Virus record (IMG/VR): IMGVR_UViG_2690316321_000006
Length of the DNA: 35,177 nt
Reading direction: 5' to 3' (one strand)
DNA from: a virus
Taxonomy: Duplodnaviria; Heunggongvirae; Uroviricota; Caudoviricetes
Numbering within the stretch: the first letter of the stretch is position 1; each line of letters begins with the position of its first letter. The position numbers and the translations under genes are program-made. The notes under the pieces were generated by a model. The model was given only the letters and a program-made list of their open reading frames with translations, searched no databases and was not told where the DNA came from. Positions 1 to 30,339 of this stretch are shown in pieces.

Positions 1-516
1 ATGAAATTTAAAAAATGTCTTCTGCCTGTGGCAATGTTAGCGTCATTCACTCTGGCAGGATGCCAGTCAAATGCTGATGATCATGCCGCCGATGTTTATC
101 AAACCGATCAACTGAATACCAAACAAGAAACTAAAACCGTTAATATTATTTCCATTCTTCCCGCAAAAGTTGCCGTAGACAACGCCCAAAATAAACGGAA
201 CGCACAAGCCTTCGGCGCGCTTATTGGCGCTGTCGCTGGCGGTGTTATCGGCCACAACGTCGGGTCTGGCAGCAATTCCGGAACGACGGCAGGTGCAGTT
301 GGCGGCGGAGCTGTTGGCGCAGCAGCGGGTTCTATGGTGAATGATAAAACCTTAGTGGAAGGTGTTTCTTTAACATATAAGGAAGGCACCAAAGTGTATA
401 CCTCCACCCAGGTGGGTAAAGAGTGCCAGTTTACGACAGGTTTAGCCGTTGTTATTACCACGACGTATAACGAAACGCGTATTCAGCCAAATACCAAATG
501 TCCTGAAAAGAGCTAA
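1..516 (+). CDS. Outer-membrane lipoprotein with glycine-zipper segment (YcfJ / 17-kDa-antigen-like)
   Basis: ATG at 1; signal peptide with lipobox LAGC; Gly/Ala-rich zipper (GALIGAVAGGVIGHNVG); ordinary GC; probably host flank, possibly a moron. Confidence 0.6.
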   Translation: MKFKKCLLPVAMLASFTLAGCQSNADDHAADVYQTDQLNTKQETKTVNIISILPAKVAVDNAQNKRNAQAFGALIGAVAGGVIGHNVGSGSNSGTTAGAVGGGAVGAAAGSMVNDKTLVEGVSLTYKEGTKVYTSTQVGKECQFTTGLAVVITTTYNETRIQPNTKCPEKS

Positions 517-531
517 TAATCAGGAGGAGTC

Positions 532-1071
532 ATGAAGAAAGTTTTTCTTTGCGCCATCTTAGCCTCCTTAAGCTATCCGGCTATCGCCTCATCATTGCAG
601 GATCAACTCTCGGCTGTCGCAGAAGCGGAACAGCAAGGTAAAAATGAAGAGCAAAGGCAGCATGACGAATGGGTCGCGGAGCGCAACAGGGAAATCCAGC
701 AAGAGAAGCAACGTCGCGCAAATGCCCAGGCCGCCGCTAACAAAAGAGCGGCAACGGCAGCAGCAAATAAGAAAGCTCGTCAGGATAAACTAGACGCCGA
801 AGCCACTGCGGACAAAAAACGCGATCAAAGTTATGAAGATGAGCTACGCAGCTTAGAGATTCAGAAACAAAAACTGGCGCTGGCGAAAGAAGAAGCCCGC
901 GTTAAGCGAGAAAACGAATTTATCGATCAGGAACTGAAGCACAAAGCTGCGCAAACCGATGTGGTGCAATCTGAAGCTGACGCAAACAGAAATATGACTG
1001 AAGGCGGTCGCGATCTGATGAAAAGCGTGGGTAAAGCAGAAGAGAACAAATCGGACAGCTGGTTTAACTAA
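532..1071 (+). CDS. Secreted charged coiled-coil protein of unknown function
   Basis: ATG at 532 preceded by AGGAGG at 522-527; N-terminal signal peptide (AIASS); K/E/Q/A-rich body; followed by a rho-independent terminator. Confidence 0.55.
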   Translation: MKKVFLCAILASLSYPAIASSLQDQLSAVAEAEQQGKNEEQRQHDEWVAERNREIQQEKQRRANAQAAANKRAATAAANKKARQDKLDAEATADKKRDQSYEDELRSLEIQKQKLALAKEEARVKRENEFIDQELKHKAAQTDVVQSEADANRNMTEGGRDLMKSVGKAEENKSDSWFN

Positions 1072-7989: not shown

Positions 7990-8104
7990 AAAGAGTACGG
8001 ATATGCGATGCGCATCACCGTATCGCCTCATCTGAACGCTGGATGCCCCTTCCCCACCAGAGTTAGTGTCTGACCCAACGAAAGAACTTACAGGGGAAAA
8101 TACC

Positions 8105-8341
8105 ATGACTATTCAGGCAGCCAGAACCCGCCCAATGACCGATACCGCTCGCCGCATCAGAGATACCATAGTTAGCGTCGGCGTTCGCAGCACATGGCCG
8201 CTGCGCGATCTGGCCGACTACGCAGATATAGAAATAGTTAACGCTGAATTTATTGTGACACAGATGGAACTGGCCGGTTATCTGAAGAAAACCCACTGGG
8301 GCCACTATATGTTAACCAGAGCGGGTATTGAGGCGGCATAA
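8105..8341 (+). CDS. Small putative winged-helix regulator (PapI/FaeA-like), accessory
   Basis: ATG at 8105 with AGGGGA upstream (track start 8066 is GTG without RBS); C-terminal ELAGYLKKTHWGHYMLT resembles the PapI/FaeA recognition-helix region; not in the P2 L-X interval. Confidence 0.4.
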   Translation: MTIQAARTRPMTDTARRIRDTIVSVGVRSTWPLRDLADYADIEIVNAEFIVTQMELAGYLKKTHWGHYMLTRAGIEAA

Positions 8342-8377
8342 TGAGTTTGAAGGTAGTGTTTGCCTGATAGCCATAAT

Positions 8378-8400
8378 AGCCCGATTCGTCGGGCTGTTTT
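8378..8400. terminator. Bidirectional hairpin terminator between convergent accessory genes
   Basis: agcccga-ttcg-tcgggct followed by gtttt; separates 8105-8341 (+) from 8431-9084 (-). Confidence 0.55.
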
Positions 8401-8430
8401 CATTTGACGCTGACTTACTCTATTCTACAT

Positions 8431-9084
8431 TTAGTCAAGAGCCGACCAATACTCAGACTCTAACCAAGAGCACAGCATTTCAACATTTCTGATAGCTTCG
8501 AATATTTTCTCTTTAGTCGGGGATATTGTAGGTGGGAATAACCACGATTTTTCTTCCTGTTCGGAAGCCAAAAGTAGCTCACACTCCTGAATAAAGTATG
8601 GGCGAGGATATTTTTCCAAGTCATTTTTTGAGTGAGAAATATTAATTGAGGTAAGTTCCTCAGGATGCTGGACACGATTTCTCACCAAGGGAATTTGTTC
8701 AATTATTTCCAAATTTGCAGGACATTTTGCCATTTCCAACTCAATTTTGTTGAAAATTTCACGATAGCCATTAAACCAACCCTTCTTGAAATTTATATCA
8801 GATTTCACGCTATGATATCCTAAGCGATCTACCCACGCCTTCAGGTACAACTGAAGAGAAGACGAAAGCATCGATAATGCATGGTGCCCACAGGTTTCTA
8901 ATCCCGACTTTGCATCTAACCATTCATCTAAAAAAGCTGGTTCATCACTCTCACCATACGGCTGAATATAAGGTTCCACTTCATTCTCAATATCATTCAT
9001 GATGTTAACAAATGGTGCAGCAGCCGTTTCATAGAAATAAGTAACGAATCTTGTGCGCTCTTTAAGAAAAAATTCAATATCCAC
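8431..9084 (-). CDS. Hypothetical 217-aa accessory protein with R-x4-H motif (possible HEPN-like toxin or effector)
   Basis: AT-rich; the track start at 9102 is TTG, the preferred start is GTG at 9084 directly after AGGAGG; contains LVRNRVQHPEEL (R-x4-H); lies downstream of an RHH gene on the same strand. Confidence 0.5.
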   Translation of the reverse strand: MDIEFFLKERTRFVTYFYETAAAPFVNIMNDIENEVEPYIQPYGESDEPAFLDEWLDAKSGLETCGHHALSMLSSSLQLYLKAWVDRLGYHSVKSDINFKKGWFNGYREIFNKIELEMAKCPANLEIIEQIPLVRNRVQHPEELTSINISHSKNDLEKYPRPYFIQECELLLASEQEEKSWLFPPTISPTKEKIFEAIRNVEMLCSWLESEYWSALD

Positions 9085-9185
9085 AACACCTCCTACACAC
9101 AATGTTTAAGTTAATCAGTGCATATCGACTAATCTGGGCTGAACAAATAATCCTAACTTCTTAGCGCTGCTTGATATCTCCGTAA

Positions 9186-9356
9186 TTATCCTTTGGGTTC
9201 AATACCTCGTGACTGAAGTTCCTTACGCAAAACGCGTTTTATCCATGTTGCGAGAGAGGTATCTCCATCTTTACGAGCCTGTTCTTCAAGCTGCTTTCTA
9301 AATTCATGAGCAAGACGAAGTTGGTACTGATCTGTTTTAGCCTTTTCACTTGACAT
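9186..9356 (-). CDS. Ribbon-helix-helix (Arc/CopG-like) DNA-binding protein; putative antitoxin or autoregulator (56 aa, absent from the ORF track)
   Basis: Minus-strand ATG at 9356 to TAA at 9186; translation MSSEKAKTDQYQLRLAHEFRKQLEEQARKDGDTSLATWIKRVLRKELQSRGIEPKG has the beta-strand then two-helix RHH pattern; palindromic GTAATTAC operators overlap its start. Confidence 0.55.
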   Translation of the reverse strand: MSSEKAKTDQYQLRLAHEFRKQLEEQARKDGDTSLATWIKRVLRKELQSRGIEPKG

Positions 9357-9408
9357 TGTAATTACAAAATCCTTAGAATGATGTAGTTGTAATTACATCG
9401 CAATTACG
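9357..9408. promoter_or_regulatory. Operator/promoter region with repeated palindrome TGTAATTACA
   Basis: TGTAATTACA at 9357-9366 and 9388-9397 (31 bp apart) plus a degenerate copy GCAATTACG at 9400-9408; sits between divergent RHH gene and the 9498 ORF. Confidence 0.5.
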
Positions 9409-9497
9409 TGATGTTTTGCAACCCTTAAACGAACGAAGCCCGCAGGTGCTACCAACACCAACGGGCCTCTGACCACAACATTAAAGAGGCTAATGCT

Positions 9498-9704
9498 ATG
9501 GCTACCGCTAATAGTAACATACGCGCACATTCAAAGCTCTACACCTTCCTGAACGCCCGTTCCAACCGCCTGCTGCGCGAGATCCAGCCCCTGCGTCTGG
9601 TGTCTGTACTGGCAACAACTGAAATCGAGGCTCGCGACCTGCTGGCGGGTTTCCCGCTGGTGTTCGTCTCCTGCAAACCGCTGGAGGTGCGCCATGGTGC
9701 CTGA
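9498..9704 (+). CDS. Small protein resembling Icd-like (host cell division inhibitor-like) proteins of P4-type elements
   Basis: ATG at 9498 with AAGAGG 8 nt upstream; 68 aa; motif pattern recalled from P4-like island small ORFs; weak. Confidence 0.4.
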   Translation: MATANSNIRAHSKLYTFLNARSNRLLREIQPLRLVSVLATTEIEARDLLAGFPLVFVSCKPLEVRHGA

Positions 9705-13109: not shown

Positions 13110-13373
13110 ATGAATACGTTAAGCGCCAAACATAAAAAAACCTTACAAGCTGTTTTTTCTACGCCAACACCTGTCACGCTGGAATGGCGAAAAATAGAAG
13201 CCTTATTTATTGCTTTGGGGGCTATTGCTACGGAAGGAAACGGTTCCCGCGTCAGGTTTGAAATTAATCAGGTTGTGGCTTCATTTCATCGTCCACACCC
13301 GGAAAAAGAAGCGAAAGCCTATCAGGTTCGCGATGCCAGAACATTCCTTGAAGCTGTAGGGGTAACACCATGA
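13110..13373 (+). CDS. hicA: HicA-family mRNA-interferase toxin
   Basis: 87 aa; conserved ...RFEINQVVASFHRPHPEKE... region typical of HicA; followed by overlapping HicB. Confidence 0.7.
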   Translation: MNTLSAKHKKTLQAVFSTPTPVTLEWRKIEALFIALGAIATEGNGSRVRFEINQVVASFHRPHPEKEAKAYQVRDARTFLEAVGVTP

Positions 13374-13705
13374 TGAATACCATGACATATAGAGGCTATG
13401 CCGCAAAAATTGAATACAGCGATGAAGATCAATGCATTGTTGGTCACGTTGCAGGCATTCGGGATGTCATTGGCTTTCATGCCGATAATGTTGCCGATCT
13501 GCGTAAAGCGTTTGAAGAGGCGGTAGACGACTATCTGGCTTACTGCGAGGAACGGGGCCGGGAGCCGTTGCGTCCGGCCAGCGGAAAAATCAGCCTGCGT
13601 ATTCCACCTGAAATTCACTCTGCCATTAACGTTGCGGCAGAAGTCTCCGGTAAAAGCGTTAACCAGTGGATTAACGATACACTGATGAAGGCTGCGCACG
13701 GTTAA
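13370..13705 (+). CDS. hicB: HicB-family antitoxin
   Basis: 111 aa; ATGA overlap with hicA; HicB-like N-terminal domain plus C-terminal RHH-like segment (ISLRIPPEIHSAINVAAEVSGKSVNQWINDTL). Confidence 0.75.
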   Translation: MMNTMTYRGYAAKIEYSDEDQCIVGHVAGIRDVIGFHADNVADLRKAFEEAVDDYLAYCEERGREPLRPASGKISLRIPPEIHSAINVAAEVSGKSVNQWINDTLMKAAHG

Positions 13706-25144: not shown

Positions 25145-25573
25145 ATGATGATGGTACTGGGGCTATTCGTCTTCAGCCTGAAAACCCTGCCCTATCAGGA
25201 TATGCAGCACGCCGTAGCGTGGCGGCATCCTGCCAGTTCCCGCGTGGGGCTACGTCCGGCCAGCCAGTTTATCGGCGTGGGTGACGAAACCATTACGCTA
25301 AACGGCGTGCTGTTGCCGGAACTGACCGGCGGGCGATTTACTCTGTTTTTCCTGCGTAAGATGGCCGATCAGGGGATGGCGTGGCCGCTGATTGAAGGCA
25401 CCGGCTCGCTGCATGGCTGGTTTGTGATTGAGAGTCTGAACGTCACACGGAGCGTCTTTTTTCGCGACGGTGCGGCCCGGCGCATTGAGTTTACGCTGGC
25501 GTTAAAACGTGTCGATCCGCCGAAGCTGGGTGGCTTGCTGGGCGACATCATCACGATGGTCGACGGACTATGA
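25145..25573 (+). CDS. U: Tail protein U (P2 gpU-like)
   Basis: ATG at 25145 with AAGGAGG upstream; the track's longer ORF from 25037 overlaps T and is rejected. Confidence 0.8.
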   Translation: MMMVLGLFVFSLKTLPYQDMQHAVAWRHPASSRVGLRPASQFIGVGDETITLNGVLLPELTGGRFTLFFLRKMADQGMAWPLIEGTGSLHGWFVIESLNVTRSVFFRDGAARRIEFTLALKRVDPPKLGGLLGDIITMVDGL

Positions 25574-26676
25574 CGATGTTAAACGCACTCTTAAACGCCC
25601 AGCCGCAACCGGAGTACAGCGTGGTGCTGAACGGTAAGGACATTACGCGGAATCTGGACAACCGCTTAATCAGCCTGCGTATCACCGACAACCGGGGCTT
25701 TGAGGCCGACGAACTGCAGCTCGAACTGGACGACAGCGACGGCCTGCTGGCGTTTCCGGCAAAGGGCGAAAAGCTAACGGTTTCTCTGGGCTGGAAGGGT
25801 GACGGCGTGATGCACCAGAATGTCTTCACAGTGGACGAACTGGAGCACAGCGGCGCACCGGACGTACTCAGCCTCCGCGCCCGCAGCGCCGATTTCCGCG
25901 ATTCGCTGAACGTTAAACGGGAACAGAGCTACCATGATGTGACGCTGGGCGCGATTGTGCAAACCGTGGCGGCACGTCATAAGCTGGAATCAACCGTCAG
26001 CGGCGAGCTGGCTGGGATCGCCATTGAGCACGTTGACCAGACTAACGAGTCTGATGCGTCCTTCCTAACCCGGCTGGCGCAAATGCACGGCGCTATCGCC
26101 TGCGTGAAAAATGATGCTCTGCTGCTGATGCCGACAGGTTCCGGTAAAAGCGCCAGCGGCAAGCCGCTGCCGGTCGCAACCATTAACCGCGAGGACGGCG
26201 ACAGCCACCGGTTCAGCATCGCGGACAGGGAAGCCTATACCGGCGTAACGGCCTACTGGCTGGATACGCGGCAGGCTAAAAAGCAGTCAACTGACGTGAA
26301 GCGCAAGACACGGAAAAACCTTCCGCAAACGCAACCAACAGAATCGCCGACGTCAGACACCTCATTCAACGCCGATAACGTGATGGTCGGCGAAGAGGGA
26401 AATATCAAGGTGCTGCGCCACACCTATGCCAACAAAAATAACGCCTACAGAGCGGCAGAAAGCGCGTGGGAGCTATTACAGCGAGGCGCGGCAACGTTCA
26501 GCCTGAATCTTGCGCGTGGACGGCCCGATTTGTTCCCGGAATTGCCGGTGCCGGTGCAGGTGAAGGGGTTTAAGGCTGAGATTGATGGCACCGCGTGGGT
26601 GATTACGCGGTGCGTGCATACGTTGGATGGCGGTACTGGTTATGTCACCGCATTAGAAATGGAATTAAGTTTATAG
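25570..26676 (+). CDS. D: Tail protein D (P2 gpD-like)
   Basis: 368 aa; ATGA overlap with U; last late gene as in P2. Confidence 0.85.
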   Translation: MTMLNALLNAQPQPEYSVVLNGKDITRNLDNRLISLRITDNRGFEADELQLELDDSDGLLAFPAKGEKLTVSLGWKGDGVMHQNVFTVDELEHSGAPDVLSLRARSADFRDSLNVKREQSYHDVTLGAIVQTVAARHKLESTVSGELAGIAIEHVDQTNESDASFLTRLAQMHGAIACVKNDALLLMPTGSGKSASGKPLPVATINREDGDSHRFSIADREAYTGVTAYWLDTRQAKKQSTDVKRKTRKNLPQTQPTESPTSDTSFNADNVMVGEEGNIKVLRHTYANKNNAYRAAESAWELLQRGAATFSLNLARGRPDLFPELPVPVQVKGFKAEIDGTAWVITRCVHTLDGGTGYVTALEMELSL

Positions 26677-27927
26677 TAATCCTAAATGAACCATAATAGC
26701 CATTAAGATCATTCCACCACCTAAGGCTGTCGGAATCCAGCATAAGCATTGAAAGAAAAGAAGGTAACGATTTAACATGACCTGATTTTTGTCTAAATTA
26801 TCCTTTGCATTGCATACTAATTTTTTCAAATCTTCTGTATAACCTACAGATTTTTTCACTAATGGGGAAAATATAATATCTTTAGCATCACAAATCATCC
26901 TAAACTGTGTGTATTGACTTCTTACAATAAAAAACATAATTATCGACGTGAGCAATACACCTAAAAAAACCACTAACATTTCCGGCAGGGTATTTAATTT
27001 TATCATGCCAAAAGTAGCAACCAAAGAAACAGGAATACCTAAAAGCTTAGCTATCATGTCTGACATTATTTTTGAAAAACGCTCAGCTAAATTAGCTTCT
27101 GCCTCTGCCACTTCCTTTCTTACTTTATGAAATGAAAAACCACTAAGATATACACCGAGGTTATTATGGTATAGTTTTAGAAATTCATCCCACTCACAGA
27201 ATAAAAAATGAAACTGTTTCTTTACATCGATTGATTCAAGAAAATCGACCACCGTATTAATGAAAATCCCTTTTCGCTCAAAATAATTATCATCCGTTAT
27301 AGCTTTTTTTTCATCAGAAAAAGATTCGATGATTTTTAAATCCTTAATACCTGTTAAAAGAAGTGAATAATCAACATTAGTTTCAATAATTAAAGGTAAT
27401 GACTTAGCATTAGTATTTTTCAAGAAAACTAACTTATGGCATACATCATCACTTTTACTATTGCTGTAGTGTGCAACTTTTGATAGACATAAAATAAAAT
27501 CACAAAGATTCTTTAAAACAGATAGTTCTGGTATTTTTGCTAATCCCTCAACCATTCCTTCATTAAAATAAAAATCTTCCTCAACCAAGTAAAAAGACTT
27601 TCTTAAAATACCTCTATTTAACATCGGAGACTTTTGAATTAGATCTTTAATATCGATAAAAAATGACTCACTGGCTCCAGTTGATATAGAGATTGTCAGT
27701 GTTATTGATGTTCCTTTAGCGGGAAGGCTATCATCAACATCTATATCCACATCATCAATGACAATCTCTTCAATTTCTCCCCACGCGGTATGAGGTTGCA
27801 AAGAAACTAAGAGTTCATATATATGAGCATCATAAGAAATAGTTGCTGAAAAACGATTATTAATAGCATCAAATTTAGGACGCCCTACATATCTGAAAAG
27901 CTCAACAACCGTTTCAAAACATGACAT
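26671..27927 (-). CDS. Accessory protein with large soluble N-terminal domain and 2-3 C-terminal transmembrane helices (candidate membrane effector); third gene of AT-rich operon
   Basis: Preferred ATG at 27927 (track start 27936 is TTG); strongly AT-rich; hydrophobic segments LVVFLGVLLTSIIMFFIV and LLFFQCLCWIPTALGGGMILMAIMVHLGLL at the C-terminus; its stop overlaps the D stop convergently by 6 bp. Confidence 0.6.
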   Translation of the reverse strand: MSCFETVVELFRYVGRPKFDAINNRFSATISYDAHIYELLVSLQPHTAWGEIEEIVIDDVDIDVDDSLPAKGTSITLTISISTGASESFFIDIKDLIQKSPMLNRGILRKSFYLVEEDFYFNEGMVEGLAKIPELSVLKNLCDFILCLSKVAHYSNSKSDDVCHKLVFLKNTNAKSLPLIIETNVDYSLLLTGIKDLKIIESFSDEKKAITDDNYFERKGIFINTVVDFLESIDVKKQFHFLFCEWDEFLKLYHNNLGVYLSGFSFHKVRKEVAEAEANLAERFSKIMSDMIAKLLGIPVSLVATFGMIKLNTLPEMLVVFLGVLLTSIIMFFIVRSQYTQFRMICDAKDIIFSPLVKKSVGYTEDLKKLVCNAKDNLDKNQVMLNRYLLFFQCLCWIPTALGGGMILMAIMVHLGLL

Positions 27928-27985
27928 ATTAAGCAACCTTATTTTTCGCTATTTCTTTCTTTTATTAACTCATCAAGCAATTGAG

Positions 27986-29086
27986 CTATTTCACTTTTTT
28001 CTCAGGAGTAATCCGAGTAAAAGTTAAATGTCCAGTTTTCTTATTATAGCATATCTCATTATCAAGAGTATTGCCTAGTAAACTAGATTTAAACTCAAAA
28101 TTAACATTATCACTTGTATATTTAATATTTCTGTTTTTCTTAACTACTGATTTGCTTACCCTAAATTCCACAGGCACACGAATACTTTCACTATTCAAAT
28201 GAGCATATAATTCTTCTGACAATTTATCTTTAATGTCATCTTCTAAATTAACCATATGCTTCGCTGCCATCTCACTAACAACAGAAAGCTTAGCTGAAAT
28301 GTTATTCTCAGAACAATCGAATAAATACTCAATAATTTCATTTTTAAATTTACGGGCATTATCCTTTAATTCTTGATGATTTCTGAAGAAGTTAAAAGAT
28401 TCATTAATTAAATTACTCGTAGCTTTAGTTGATGTATTACCTTTATCACAACCTAAGGCAGTAATGAAATACCCTGAAGTTGTCTGGTTAGAACTGGGAC
28501 TAACAAAACTTAAATAATTAACATCCTGTCTTTCATTCTCATCAGCGGAAATATATTTATCATACAAATCATAGTTTATTCGTGCCGCCTGATTTAGTTT
28601 TGCCAGATCAAGATGCTCTAACTCCTTTGGTTCTAATTTATCACTAATAACTATACCTTCCTTTTGCTTAATCATTGCAATAAGAAAGTAACGCACGGAT
28701 TTACTGATATAATCAGCAAAAAGAAGTAATCCTCCTGATGCAGCAGGTCGATCCTTTGCCTCAATATATAACTGATGCATAACATTTTTTGATAATCCTA
28801 TAAACAATTCATCGTCTAACTTCTTGGATGTATCATTCCGATATTTATCAAATGCCGCTGGAAAAGGCCCCCTACGTGTTTCATCTAAATTAAATATACC
28901 ATAATGCGAGCTATTAGATTTTTTACCATACAATGCGGCTATACTGGACACTAGTTTAATTACGATTTCATTATTTCGGTCAAGAACCGTATCACGGCGA
29001 CTATATGGTTTTGAGTGATCGAAATCTTTATGTTGCTCTTTTATCAACCTATGAACAACCACGCACCCTAATGAAATATCAGACAT
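27986..29086 (-). CDS. NdpA/YejK-like nucleoid-associated-protein-family member (accessory); second gene of AT-rich operon
   Basis: 366 aa; collinear similarity to E. coli YejK as recalled from memory (MSDISLGCVVVHRLIKEQ vs MSLDINQIALHQLIKRDEQ; ASGGLLLFADY vs ADGGFVLFCHY; YLSFV vs YLTFL); RBS TGAGG upstream. Confidence 0.65.
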   Translation of the reverse strand: MSDISLGCVVVHRLIKEQHKDFDHSKPYSRRDTVLDRNNEIVIKLVSSIAALYGKKSNSSHYGIFNLDETRRGPFPAAFDKYRNDTSKKLDDELFIGLSKNVMHQLYIEAKDRPAASGGLLLFADYISKSVRYFLIAMIKQKEGIVISDKLEPKELEHLDLAKLNQAARINYDLYDKYISADENERQDVNYLSFVSPSSNQTTSGYFITALGCDKGNTSTKATSNLINESFNFFRNHQELKDNARKFKNEIIEYLFDCSENNISAKLSVVSEMAAKHMVNLEDDIKDKLSEELYAHLNSESIRVPVEFRVSKSVVKKNRNIKYTSDNVNFEFKSSLLGNTLDNEICYNKKTGHLTFTRITPEKKVK

Positions 29087-29100
29087 ATAACCTCACAATC

Positions 29101-29673
29101 CTATGGTAAATAAAAATCTTTCGCTTTATTTTCTAAATCAGTCCATCTACTGCTAATATTCTTTTCCTTACAAACAAGAAAAGCCTGATACCCTAAAAAC
29201 TCTTTCGTTTTCTTTAAATTATCTTCAGTAACATGACTCTTTTCTTCATTGTTGTTTTTCCATCCACAGAAATATATTCTGTCTGCTTCTTCAACATCCC
29301 TGACATGCACAGCAATATCAGTATATTTTGCCTTATTCTTAACAGTAACCGATGGAGGGATTTTCCCATCAAAATCTTCAAAAAACTTACTTGTTCTAAA
29401 TGGATTGGCAGGGTCATATTTCAAACCTAGAGCCTTGCATAATTCTTTATAAGTCTCACTTCCCAGATTAGGATTTATGACGAATCCCTTCTCGACTTTT
29501 AGACGAAAGCAAAGATTAGCGCCTAATGCTCCGAAAAGAAGCTCAAACGGTTTTCCATCAATAAAGAAAAATACATCAAAATGTAAATTATTGTGTCTGT
29601 ATGGGAATTTAACCCTATCCAATTTTTGCTCTGTCATGTTCCTGTAAAGAGCAACCAGATTATTCAACTTCAT
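29101..29673 (-). CDS. Hypothetical 190-aa protein; first gene of AT-rich accessory operon
   Basis: ATG at 29673 with GGAGG 5 nt upstream; AT-rich; no recognisable motif; 14-bp gap to the next gene. Confidence 0.55.
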   Translation of the reverse strand: MKLNNLVALYRNMTEQKLDRVKFPYRHNNLHFDVFFFIDGKPFELLFGALGANLCFRLKVEKGFVINPNLGSETYKELCKALGLKYDPANPFRTSKFFEDFDGKIPPSVTVKNKAKYTDIAVHVRDVEEADRIYFCGWKNNNEEKSHVTEDNLKKTKEFLGYQAFLVCKEKNISSRWTDLENKAKDFYLP

Positions 29674-29713: not shown

Positions 29714-30052
29714 TTATCCCTTAGCTGCTTTCCCTACTCCCGGTTGCGCAAGCGCAGCGCTAACCGTGTCAAGGGTGGACTGGTGTTCTGGCGTAGCAGA
29801 ACGATAGTTTTCCACCAACACACTCTCTTTACTGGACAACGTAACTACAGGCGTGCGGTTGCCTGTTAGAACATACAGAACATCAACTCCCGCTGCCGCT
29901 ATGCCAGCAAGATAGTCACTGTCCGGCTTACGCAACCCATTCTCATAGTTGCTTTGTGCGTTTTTCTTCACGCCCCCAAGTTGTCCAAAGCCGTCTTGAT
30001 CAAGTCCAAGTCGGATACGTTCTTCCTTCAAACGGATGCCAAATTCTTTCAT
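29714..30052 (-). CDS. HTH (XRE/CI-like) transcriptional repressor, putative immunity repressor
   Basis: 112 aa; N-terminal helix-turn-helix; divergent from the small regulator / ogr / primase operon, as for P2 C versus cox. Confidence 0.7.
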   Translation of the reverse strand: MKEFGIRLKEERIRLGLDQDGFGQLGGVKKNAQSNYENGLRKPDSDYLAGIAAAGVDVLYVLTGNRTPVVTLSSKESVLVENYRSATPEHQSTLDTVSAALAQPGVGKAAKG

Positions 30053-30132
30053 TTGGATATAATTACCATTGACAATTCACTCAATTGAGGGAATTATAGA
30101 TTGTGTAATGTTAATAACCACAATATACCACC
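30053..30132. promoter_or_regulatory. Divergent promoter/operator region of the lysis-lysogeny switch
   Basis: 80-bp AT-rich intergenic region between divergent repressor and early operon; TTGACA at 30071-30076; dyad aattc...gaatt around 30077-30096. Confidence 0.45.
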
Positions 30133-30339
30133 ATGAAAACAAATGAGAACGTCTTACGCTCACGAGCACCCCGCGGGGTGATGTCGAACAAACCGGTGGC
30201 AATGCGTCTGCTCCCCGCTGAAATCGCGGAATTGGAAGCATTAGCGCTGGATCAGAACCGTTCGATGTCCAGCATGGCAAGAATCATTTTTTTGAACGGC
30301 ATCACATTTTTTCGTCAGTCCGTTAACGAAAAGCGTTAA
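30133..30339 (+). CDS. Small regulatory protein in the Cox/Apl position (possible RHH-like)
   Basis: 68 aa; first gene of the rightward early operon; segment MRLLPAEIAELEALALDQNRSMSSMARI resembles RHH/MobC-type N-termini; weak. Confidence 0.4.
   Translation: MKTNENVLRSRAPRGVMSNKPVAMRLLPAEIAELEALALDQNRSMSSMARIIFLNGITFFRQSVNEKR

Follow-up and report, generated by a model that had tools for sequence, protein, structure and literature searches.

Genes of the insert

The DNA analyzed here, hereafter the window, is a stretch of 35,177 nucleotides (nt) from a prophage of the Caudoviricetes (IMG/VR record IMGVR_UViG_2690316321_000006), and we studied the three genes that lie between its tail gene D and its immunity repressor gene. 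These genes, here called A, B, and C, occupy positions 26671-29673 on the minus strand and code for proteins of 190, 366, and 418 amino acids (aa). A first-pass annotation, made from the sequence and its open reading frames (ORFs), had described them as an AT-rich insert and proposed that together they form an undescribed anti-phage or xenogeneic-regulation system. The composition agreed with the insert as described (about 30% GC against about 58%): the GC content was 0.28 to 0.35 over 26600-29600, whereas the tail genes had 0.57 to 0.63 and the replication gene had about 0.58.

All three genes have an ATG start preceded by a ribosome-binding site, and the gaps between them are short, as had been noted. 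Gene A (29673..29101) has GGAGG 5 nt upstream, gene B (29086..27986) has GAGG, and gene C (27927..26671), the start of which is also the RefSeq start, has AAGG; an alternative TTG start of gene C at 27936 would give a protein of 421 aa. The gaps measure 40 nt between repressor gene and A, 14 nt between A and B, and 58 nt between B and C, with no convincing terminator-like site between the repressor gene, A, B, and C. At the other end, the stop codon of gene C (26671-26673) abuts that of D (26674-26676), which gives the two ORFs an overlap of 6 nt, exactly as first reported.

Genes B and C as a predicted pair of the DS-1/type II PANGU kind

Gene B matched the Pfam family NA37 (PF04245) with an E value of 5e-46 (158 bits against a gathering score of 24.6), and the match was of full length, residues 10-361 aligning with profile positions 1-322 of 325. 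Its sole relative by sequence in the Protein Data Bank (PDB) was YejK (9be2; E value, 1.6e-9), and the likeness to NdpA/YejK that had been recognized by eye was thus substantiated by profile search. The chromosomal YejK/NdpA of Escherichia coli (9be2) also carries NA37 along its full length; unlike it, gene B is phage borne, AT rich, and invariably accompanied by an effector gene. Since it scored 108 bits with the NCBIfam YejK model (NF001557), below the equivalog cutoff of 341, gene B is, judged by profile scores, a divergent mobile paralogue and not an orthologue of the chromosomal YejK. It also matched phrog_3767 (E value, 4e-63) and the NCBIfam model DS1_1_antiphage, described as a “nucleoid-associated anti-phage protein” (E value, 1e-22).

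DS-1 is a two-gene unit of an ECOR strain that was found by DefensePredictor (Science 2026, PMC13092281), in which DS-1A (WP_000355468.1; a zinc ribbon plus a YejK domain, 391 aa) is followed by DS-1B (WP_000150292.1, 404 aa). The unit was validated in MG1655 from a low-copy plasmid with its native promoter, and the protection, given in Table S7 of that work as the −log of the efficiency of plating (EOP), was 7.6 for Bas1, 2.7 for Bas26, and 1.7 for Bas3 and T3 (PMC13092281). Genes B and C show the same gene order and architecture. By BLASTP, gene B was 26% identical to DS-1A over 214 aa (E value, 4e-9), without the N-terminal zinc-ribbon extension of DS-1A (residues 1-40), and we predict that it is a sensor resembling PagA (see below) and DS-1A.

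Pfam assigned no family to gene C, which matched the NCBIfam model DS1_2_antiphage (E value, 1.5e-19) and phrog_5023 (E value, 3e-52). Its pairwise identity to DS-1B was 26% over 68 aa. With a profile built from eight homologues of gene C, hhalign aligned the family with DS-1B at 96.4% probability (E value, 1.4e-9; 261 columns), while a phmmer search with DS-1B matched 129 of 156 representatives of the family at an E value of ≤10 (best, 4.8e-16). The homology covers the soluble domain and the first transmembrane (TM) hairpin. In a Kyte-Doolittle analysis, DS-1B had no segment of ≥1.6, whereas gene C had three clear TM-like segments, all C-terminal (291-309, 317-335, and 395-413). Its N-terminal domain (residues 1-245) contains an acidic stretch and has a net charge of −14, and the AlphaFold2 (AF2) model (predicted local distance difference test score, 84) consists of an N-terminal alpha/beta domain followed by long helices. 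The membrane-anchored, effector-like architecture read from the sequence at the outset was therefore upheld.

The same traits recur throughout the family. Each of the 80 full-length members examined had an acidic N-terminal domain (median net charge, −13), three TM-like segments were present in 61 of these 80, and the motif YLSGFSFHK is conserved. When the family was searched exhaustively by profile, 994 representative clusters were obtained at an E value of ≤1e-3 (198 at ≤1e-30), nearly all of them collinear proteins of 400 to 430 aa. The effectors form a large family, with about 1,000 clusters when grouped at 50% identity; its members are strictly linked to nucleoid-associated proteins (NAPs), have a uniformly acidic N terminus, and extend over bacterial phyla and into archaeal metagenome-assembled genomes (MAGs).

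The link to the NAP was evident in the gene neighborhoods. A genome scan for homologues of gene C yielded 24 loci: 22 intact ones, a copy disrupted by an insertion sequence, and a degenerate copy lacking a single C frame. In all of the 22 intact loci, the ORF directly preceding the C homologue was NA37, in the same orientation and at a distance of −11 to +32 nt. The loci belong to Xenorhabdus, Halomonas, Pseudomonas, Pseudoalteromonas, Vibrio, the Desulfobacterota, a MAG of the Moraniibacteriota (candidate phyla radiation, CPR), and a Methanosarcina MAG. The pairing was found as well in a Serratia island, a P4-like island, a lambdoid prophage, a metagenome contig, and the Klebsiella phage P7641, giving a total of 27 independent loci, none of which had DUF6037, the family of gene A (see below), nearby. 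Over 23 loci, the identities among NAPs and among effectors covaried (r = 0.91; 0 of 2,000 Mantel permutations were as high). The complete module is rare: of the 5,426 complete E. coli genomes, two carried it, and within the phage collection that we searched, megablast with the region gave no match, while tblastn found only five records with a relative of gene C and one with DUF6037.

A second point of reference is PANGU, a group of bicistronic defense operons that contain a NAP (bioRxiv, April 2026, 10.64898/2026.04.06.716658). Type I combines the NAP with the toxSAS toxin GRel, and type II combines the NAP Pag2A with the transmembrane effector Pag2B, the acidic, DNA-mimicking N-terminal domain of which binds Pag2A with a dissociation constant of 19 nM (10.64898/2026.04.06.716658). 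In the type II system PANGU-Ecu, both genes are required for protection against phages, neither is toxic alone, and the phenotype is that of abortive infection; Pag2A fused to GFP leaves the nucleoid upon T4 infection, and T4 escapes through EndoII mutations (10.64898/2026.04.06.716658). In the sensing mechanism put forward there, the NAP leaves the degraded host chromosome and binds the acidic domain of the effector, which triggers abortive infection (10.64898/2026.04.06.716658).

Genes B and C share with type II PANGU the bicistronic arrangement, in which a YejK-like NAP comes first and is followed by an effector that is acidic in its N-terminal domain and has a TM domain at its C terminus. 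The two genes are 11 nt apart in the allele of E. coli GMF054 (see below), within the limit of <40 bp that defines the type II spacing; gene C has the acidic N terminus and the C-terminal TM part, DNA mimicry being attributed to it by analogy. Type II systems are located among defense genes or on mobile elements, as this pair is. What sets the pair apart is that it is prophage cargo behind an immunity repressor, preceded by DUF6037, and that the NAP gene of the window is frameshifted. When gene C was compared by hhalign with the toxSAS effector found at the same site in sibling prophages, no common “DNA-mimic” domain was detected.

Both NCBIfam models of DS-1 (NF053868/NF053869) were matched significantly and below their equivalog cutoffs, as remote homologues. 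On profile evidence, the homology of the pair to the DS-1 kind is solid, even though it is not DS-1 itself, given the low pairwise identity and the missed equivalog cutoffs; we classify B and C by sequence as a divergent new member of the DS-1/type II PANGU kind. The idea of a defense built on an NdpA-like protein was therefore correct. It is no longer new, as two groups arrived at it independently in 2025-2026, and the label “undescribed” does not hold with a validated DS-1, the PANGU preprint of 2026, and NCBIfam models that match both genes. In PADLOC v2.0, where a match to a catalogued system was to be looked for, nothing was found for A, B, or C. If assayed, the family of gene C would show the role that the membrane arm plays in type II PANGU.

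The slot between D and the repressor

On its left, the insert is bordered by the tail gene D (25570..26676, plus strand, annotated within the late control D family), and on its right by the immunity repressor gene (29714..30052, minus strand), which codes for a helix-turn-helix (HTH) protein of 112 aa with matches to Pfam HTH_31/HTH_3 and to the repressor families phrog_8/phrog_4. The repressor is context and stands outside the defense modules. Five types of cargo were found between matching flanks, with D to the left and repressor, Ogr, and Toprim primase to the right: DUF6037 with NA37 and gene C in the window and in E. coli GMF054 and 24A16CRGN010; NA37 with a RelA_SpoT protein, which is the type I PANGU architecture, in E. 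coli L725 and CEC15; DUF6037 with ThsB-TIR, caspase, PDC-M11A, and ASCH proteins in the sibling L010 (6001-9414); WYL with ThsB-TIR and caspase proteins in L041 (10130-11966); and WYL with PDC-S19 (DUF3644) in L042 (8006-9975). All of these cargoes are AT rich, start 2 to 40 nt past the repressor stop, and end at most a few nucleotides from the stop codon of D. The early suggestion of a precise insertion of foreign DNA is borne out by these tight junctions in all siblings, and the polymorphism that it anticipated at this site is what we observed. The slot between D and the repressor is a prophage defense hotspot with swappable anti-phage cargo. Its variability among siblings rules out a conserved morphogenetic role of the genes.

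The cargo of L725 (NZ_CP036202.1, 5274-7360) consists of an NA37 protein of 362 aa, from a lineage other than that of gene B, and a RelA/SpoT-domain protein of 333 aa. DefensePredictor lists the cluster of this NAP as a “predicted novel defense gene” (log-odds, 6.9), and the RelA/SpoT-domain protein of the L725 and CEC15 slot also matches PADLOC PDC-S33. A single slot thus alternates between type I (NAP plus toxSAS) and type II (NAP plus TM effector) architectures, which provides direct field evidence for the modularity that has been proposed for NAP-based defense.

The gene order past D runs through the cargo, the HTH repressor, a small ribbon-helix-helix (RHH)/cox-like ORF, Ogr, a Toprim primase/helicase, DUF7673, and the integrase. 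With this order, the backbone is P2-like and not P2 proper, which corrects the initial comparison with P2. The P2/P4 hotspots, reportedly described by Rousset et al. in 2022, are said to hold diverse exchangeable defense cargo at a fixed position of P2-like prophages. The slot resembles them in its fixed position within a P2-like prophage and in its diverse, AT-rich, exchangeable defense cargo, and differs from them in lying between D and the repressor, not at the Z/fun and tin/old loci of P2, and in its Toprim primase/helicase backbone.

A promoter-like site on the minus strand (30149..30122) faces a promoter-like site on the plus strand (30069..30097). As the repressor gene and the cargo are on the same strand, 40 nt apart, and without a terminator between them, the cargo genes are probably transcribed with the repressor in the lysogen. 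The spacing of the cargoes in general fits such co-transcription, in analogy to cI-rexA-rexB of lambda. There, RexA and RexB are co-transcribed with the prophage repressor and bring about exclusion of the abortive-infection type, by means of a cytoplasmic DNA-binding sensor and a polytopic membrane protein. The analogy with genes B and C is one of logic and genomic position, and the signal that is sensed differs; we found no similarity in sequence or fold, and neither Pfam, PADLOC, nor PHROGs gave any pointer to Rex. The locus offers a natural example of a DS-1/type II PANGU-like pair on a temperate phage; from its Rex-like position behind the repressor, the pair would arm the lysogen constitutively.

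Gene A, a DUF6037 protein

Gene A (29101..29673, minus strand), regarded at first as free of recognizable motifs, matched Pfam DUF6037 (PF19503) over residues 1-186 (E value, 2.5e-31; 109.7 bits against a gathering score of 28.8). The protein has a net charge of +5 and no TM segment, gave no match in PADLOC, NCBIfam, or PHROGs, and its AF2 model, predicted with confidence, corresponded to no known fold. The protein WP_024247617.1, which is the 190-aa DUF6037 protein at this position in GMF054, is listed by DefensePredictor as a “predicted novel defense gene” with log-odds of 8.0 (PMC13092281).

The distribution of DUF6037 is independent of genes B and C. It was found within about 4.5 kb of a C-family gene in none of the 24 loci of the genome scan, and in none of 17 viral-contig loci did NA37, a C-family gene, or any other conserved partner stand beside it. 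On the viral contigs, it is usually a solo gene, on the strand opposite its neighbors and with a GC content below that of its locus. Altogether, DUF6037 occurs without the NA37+C pair in more than 20 loci and as a standalone gene in at least six other prophage backbones, e.g., within the tail module in a Ralstonia prophage and between the lysis genes and the Q region in Yersinia ruckeri and in a metagenomic lambdoid prophage. In the sibling L010, a copy of 89% identity takes the same first position after the repressor, followed by a different cargo.

Together, these data suggest that gene A is an autonomous single-gene moron and a computationally predicted defense gene, most likely a further defense or exclusion gene. 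As a tentative and more specific proposal, which we put forward with less than even confidence, DUF6037 may be a new single-gene anti-phage or superinfection-exclusion protein of unseen fold, carried as a solo moron in unrelated prophages and here placed directly behind the repressor. In a weaker variant, it would modulate the downstream defense cargo in place of the WYL regulators of the siblings; a regulatory role is conceivable because WYL-domain proteins hold the position of gene A in L041 and L042. With B and C being of a known kind, DUF6037 stands out at the locus as a clean, small, and structurally orphan candidate for experiment.

A 218-aa protein lies directly downstream of the GajA/GajB (Gabija) pair in E. 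coli JA0265 (NZ_CP072785.1, 3136-7563). DefensePredictor groups it with a protein assigned to DUF6037 by HHpred, and we considered it as a case of DUF6037 within a defense island; this case was dropped, as neither hmmscan nor hhalign confirmed its membership.

State of the copy in the window

The copy of the region in E. coli GMF054 is 99.6% identical to the window. At 27995-28000, the coding strand of the window has a run of six A residues (A6), where GMF054 has seven (A7). The intact gene B of GMF054 codes for 382 aa and ends in PEKKSEIAQLLDELIKERNSEK, whereas the protein of the window (366 aa) ends in PEKKVK. Without the deletion, gene B would end at about 27939, leaving a gap of 11 nt to gene C, and the gap of 58 nt in the window exists only because of this 1-nt frameshift. 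The residues lost form a C-terminal helix of 16 aa that is kept in homologues of 80% and 50% identity. Another E. coli copy of 99% identity (24A16CRGN010, 566-1821) has an intact NAP gene (382 aa) and gene C annotated as two ORFs, and a cluster of truncated C proteins of 249 aa (P0017) exists as well. Such disrupted copies may reflect assembly errors at homopolymers, or else the true inactivation of an abortive-infection system that comes at a cost.

Proposed function and alternatives

An anti-phage role is the best reading of the insert, in line with the original proposal. We consider it hotspot cargo made up of two independent modules, an abortive-infection pair of the DS-1/type II PANGU kind (B and C) and a separate DUF6037 moron, with a probability of roughly 0.75. 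By analogy, B and C would behave like PANGU-Ecu and DS-1. Gene B, as a phage-borne YejK paralogue, would sit on the host chromosome and be released when an infecting phage degrades this chromosome; it would then bind the acidic, putatively DNA-mimicking N-terminal domain of gene C. Binding would switch on the C-terminal TM part, with damage to or permeabilization of the membrane, and the cell would be stopped before phage progeny appear. The early steps are carried over from the relatives, while the action of the membrane domain is one that we infer for every member of the kind; more speculatively, the membrane arm of gene C and of type II PANGU may be a CorA-like gated pore.

Several observations weigh against this assignment. 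Genes B and C are only about 26% identical to DS-1A and DS-1B, and their scores with the DS-1 models are about a quarter of the equivalog cutoffs (80.6 bits versus 330 for gene B with DS1_1 and 70.4 versus 315 for gene C with DS1_2), so that the function is extrapolated from relatives over a large sequence distance. The likeness to Pag2A/Pag2B is one of architecture, and the evidence for co-transcription with the repressor consists of the spacing and the absence of terminator-like sites. PADLOC v2.0 had no hidden Markov model (HMM) match at an E value of ≤1 for any of the three genes, in a database that predates both DS-1 and PANGU. The frameshift removes the conserved 16-aa helix from gene B, and gene C of 24A16CRGN010 is split (193 plus 209 aa); the window copy may be inactive, or these disruptions may be assembly errors.

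The last point leads to the alternative that deserves the most attention, namely, that the window holds a decaying, nonfunctional remnant in which the pair is dead through its frameshifted NAP and only DUF6037, if anything, is active. The homopolymer deletion, which cuts away a helix conserved at 50 to 80% identity, the split and the 249-aa versions of gene C, and the presence of the module in only 2 of 5,426 complete E. coli genomes all speak for decay. On the other hand, single-base differences in homopolymers are common assembly errors, the rest of gene B and the whole of gene C are intact and 99 to 100% identical to the GMF054 allele, and the loss of 16 C-terminal residues need not destroy function; on balance, we regard a dead copy as unlikely, if by no means far-fetched. 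A good deal less probable is a single integrated system, as first proposed, in which DUF6037 would be an obligatory third part acting as regulator, co-sensor, or antidote. The three genes indeed run in one direction, closely spaced and without an intervening terminator, DUF6037 comes first after the repressor, where the WYL-type regulators of L041 and L042 sit, and in L010 it again precedes a multigene defense cargo. The distributions nevertheless separate, as the NA37+C pair lacks DUF6037 in 27 loci and DUF6037 is a solo gene without a conserved partner in at least six other phage backbones. Furthermore, DS-1 and PANGU-Ecu function with two genes, and the NAP system of the sibling L725 does without DUF6037.

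The remaining alternatives concern genes B and C themselves. In one, which the first-pass annotation had raised, the pair would serve lysogenic conversion or exclusion in place of abortive infection, with gene B silencing or organizing the prophage or incoming DNA and gene C blocking DNA entry at the inner membrane as a means of superinfection exclusion. Gene B does belong to a family of DNA-binding nucleoid proteins, gene C is membrane anchored, and both are probably expressed from the lysogenic promoter. However, the strict and coevolving pairing of a NAP with an acidic-domain effector fits the coupling of a sensor to its effector, the related systems show abortive infection and relocation of the NAP, a sensor role that is independent of entry blocking, and, in the slot of a sibling, the same NAP family is combined with a toxSAS enzyme of the cytoplasm, a partner that does not sit well with a block to entry; we find this reading improbable. 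Xenogeneic silencing, which had been offered as an alternative from the beginning, received no support from any test that we ran. A toxin-antitoxin (TA)-like addiction module, with gene C as a membrane toxin, gene B as its antidote, and no role in phage defense, seems very improbable. Two genes that include a membrane protein, carried on a mobile element and with disrupted copies of gene C, would suit it, yet single-gene constructs of PANGU are nontoxic and its NAP activates the effector instead of neutralizing it (10.64898/2026.04.06.716658), and DS-1 protects from a plasmid under its native promoter (PMC13092281). Xenogeneic silencing, TA addiction, and a morphogenetic role were accordingly considered and rejected.

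Other AT-rich islets in the window

Besides the slot between D and the repressor, the window contains an AT-rich islet among the late genes (13110-13705; GC content, 0.41), which codes for a HicA toxin (87 aa; Pfam E value, 4.7e-8) followed by an overlapping ORF of 111 aa, probably HicB, and is suggestive of a second moron or TA module in the prophage. A further islet at 8100-9500 (GC content, 0.38 to 0.40) carries a minus-strand ORF of 223 aa (8431-9102, TTG start), for which Pfam and PADLOC gave no match, and may be a third cargo position. At the beginning of the window (1-1071; GC content, about 0.48), there are genes for a glycine-zipper/TraT-like protein (1-516) and a DUF5384 protein (532-1071), which probably lie outside the late-gene block.

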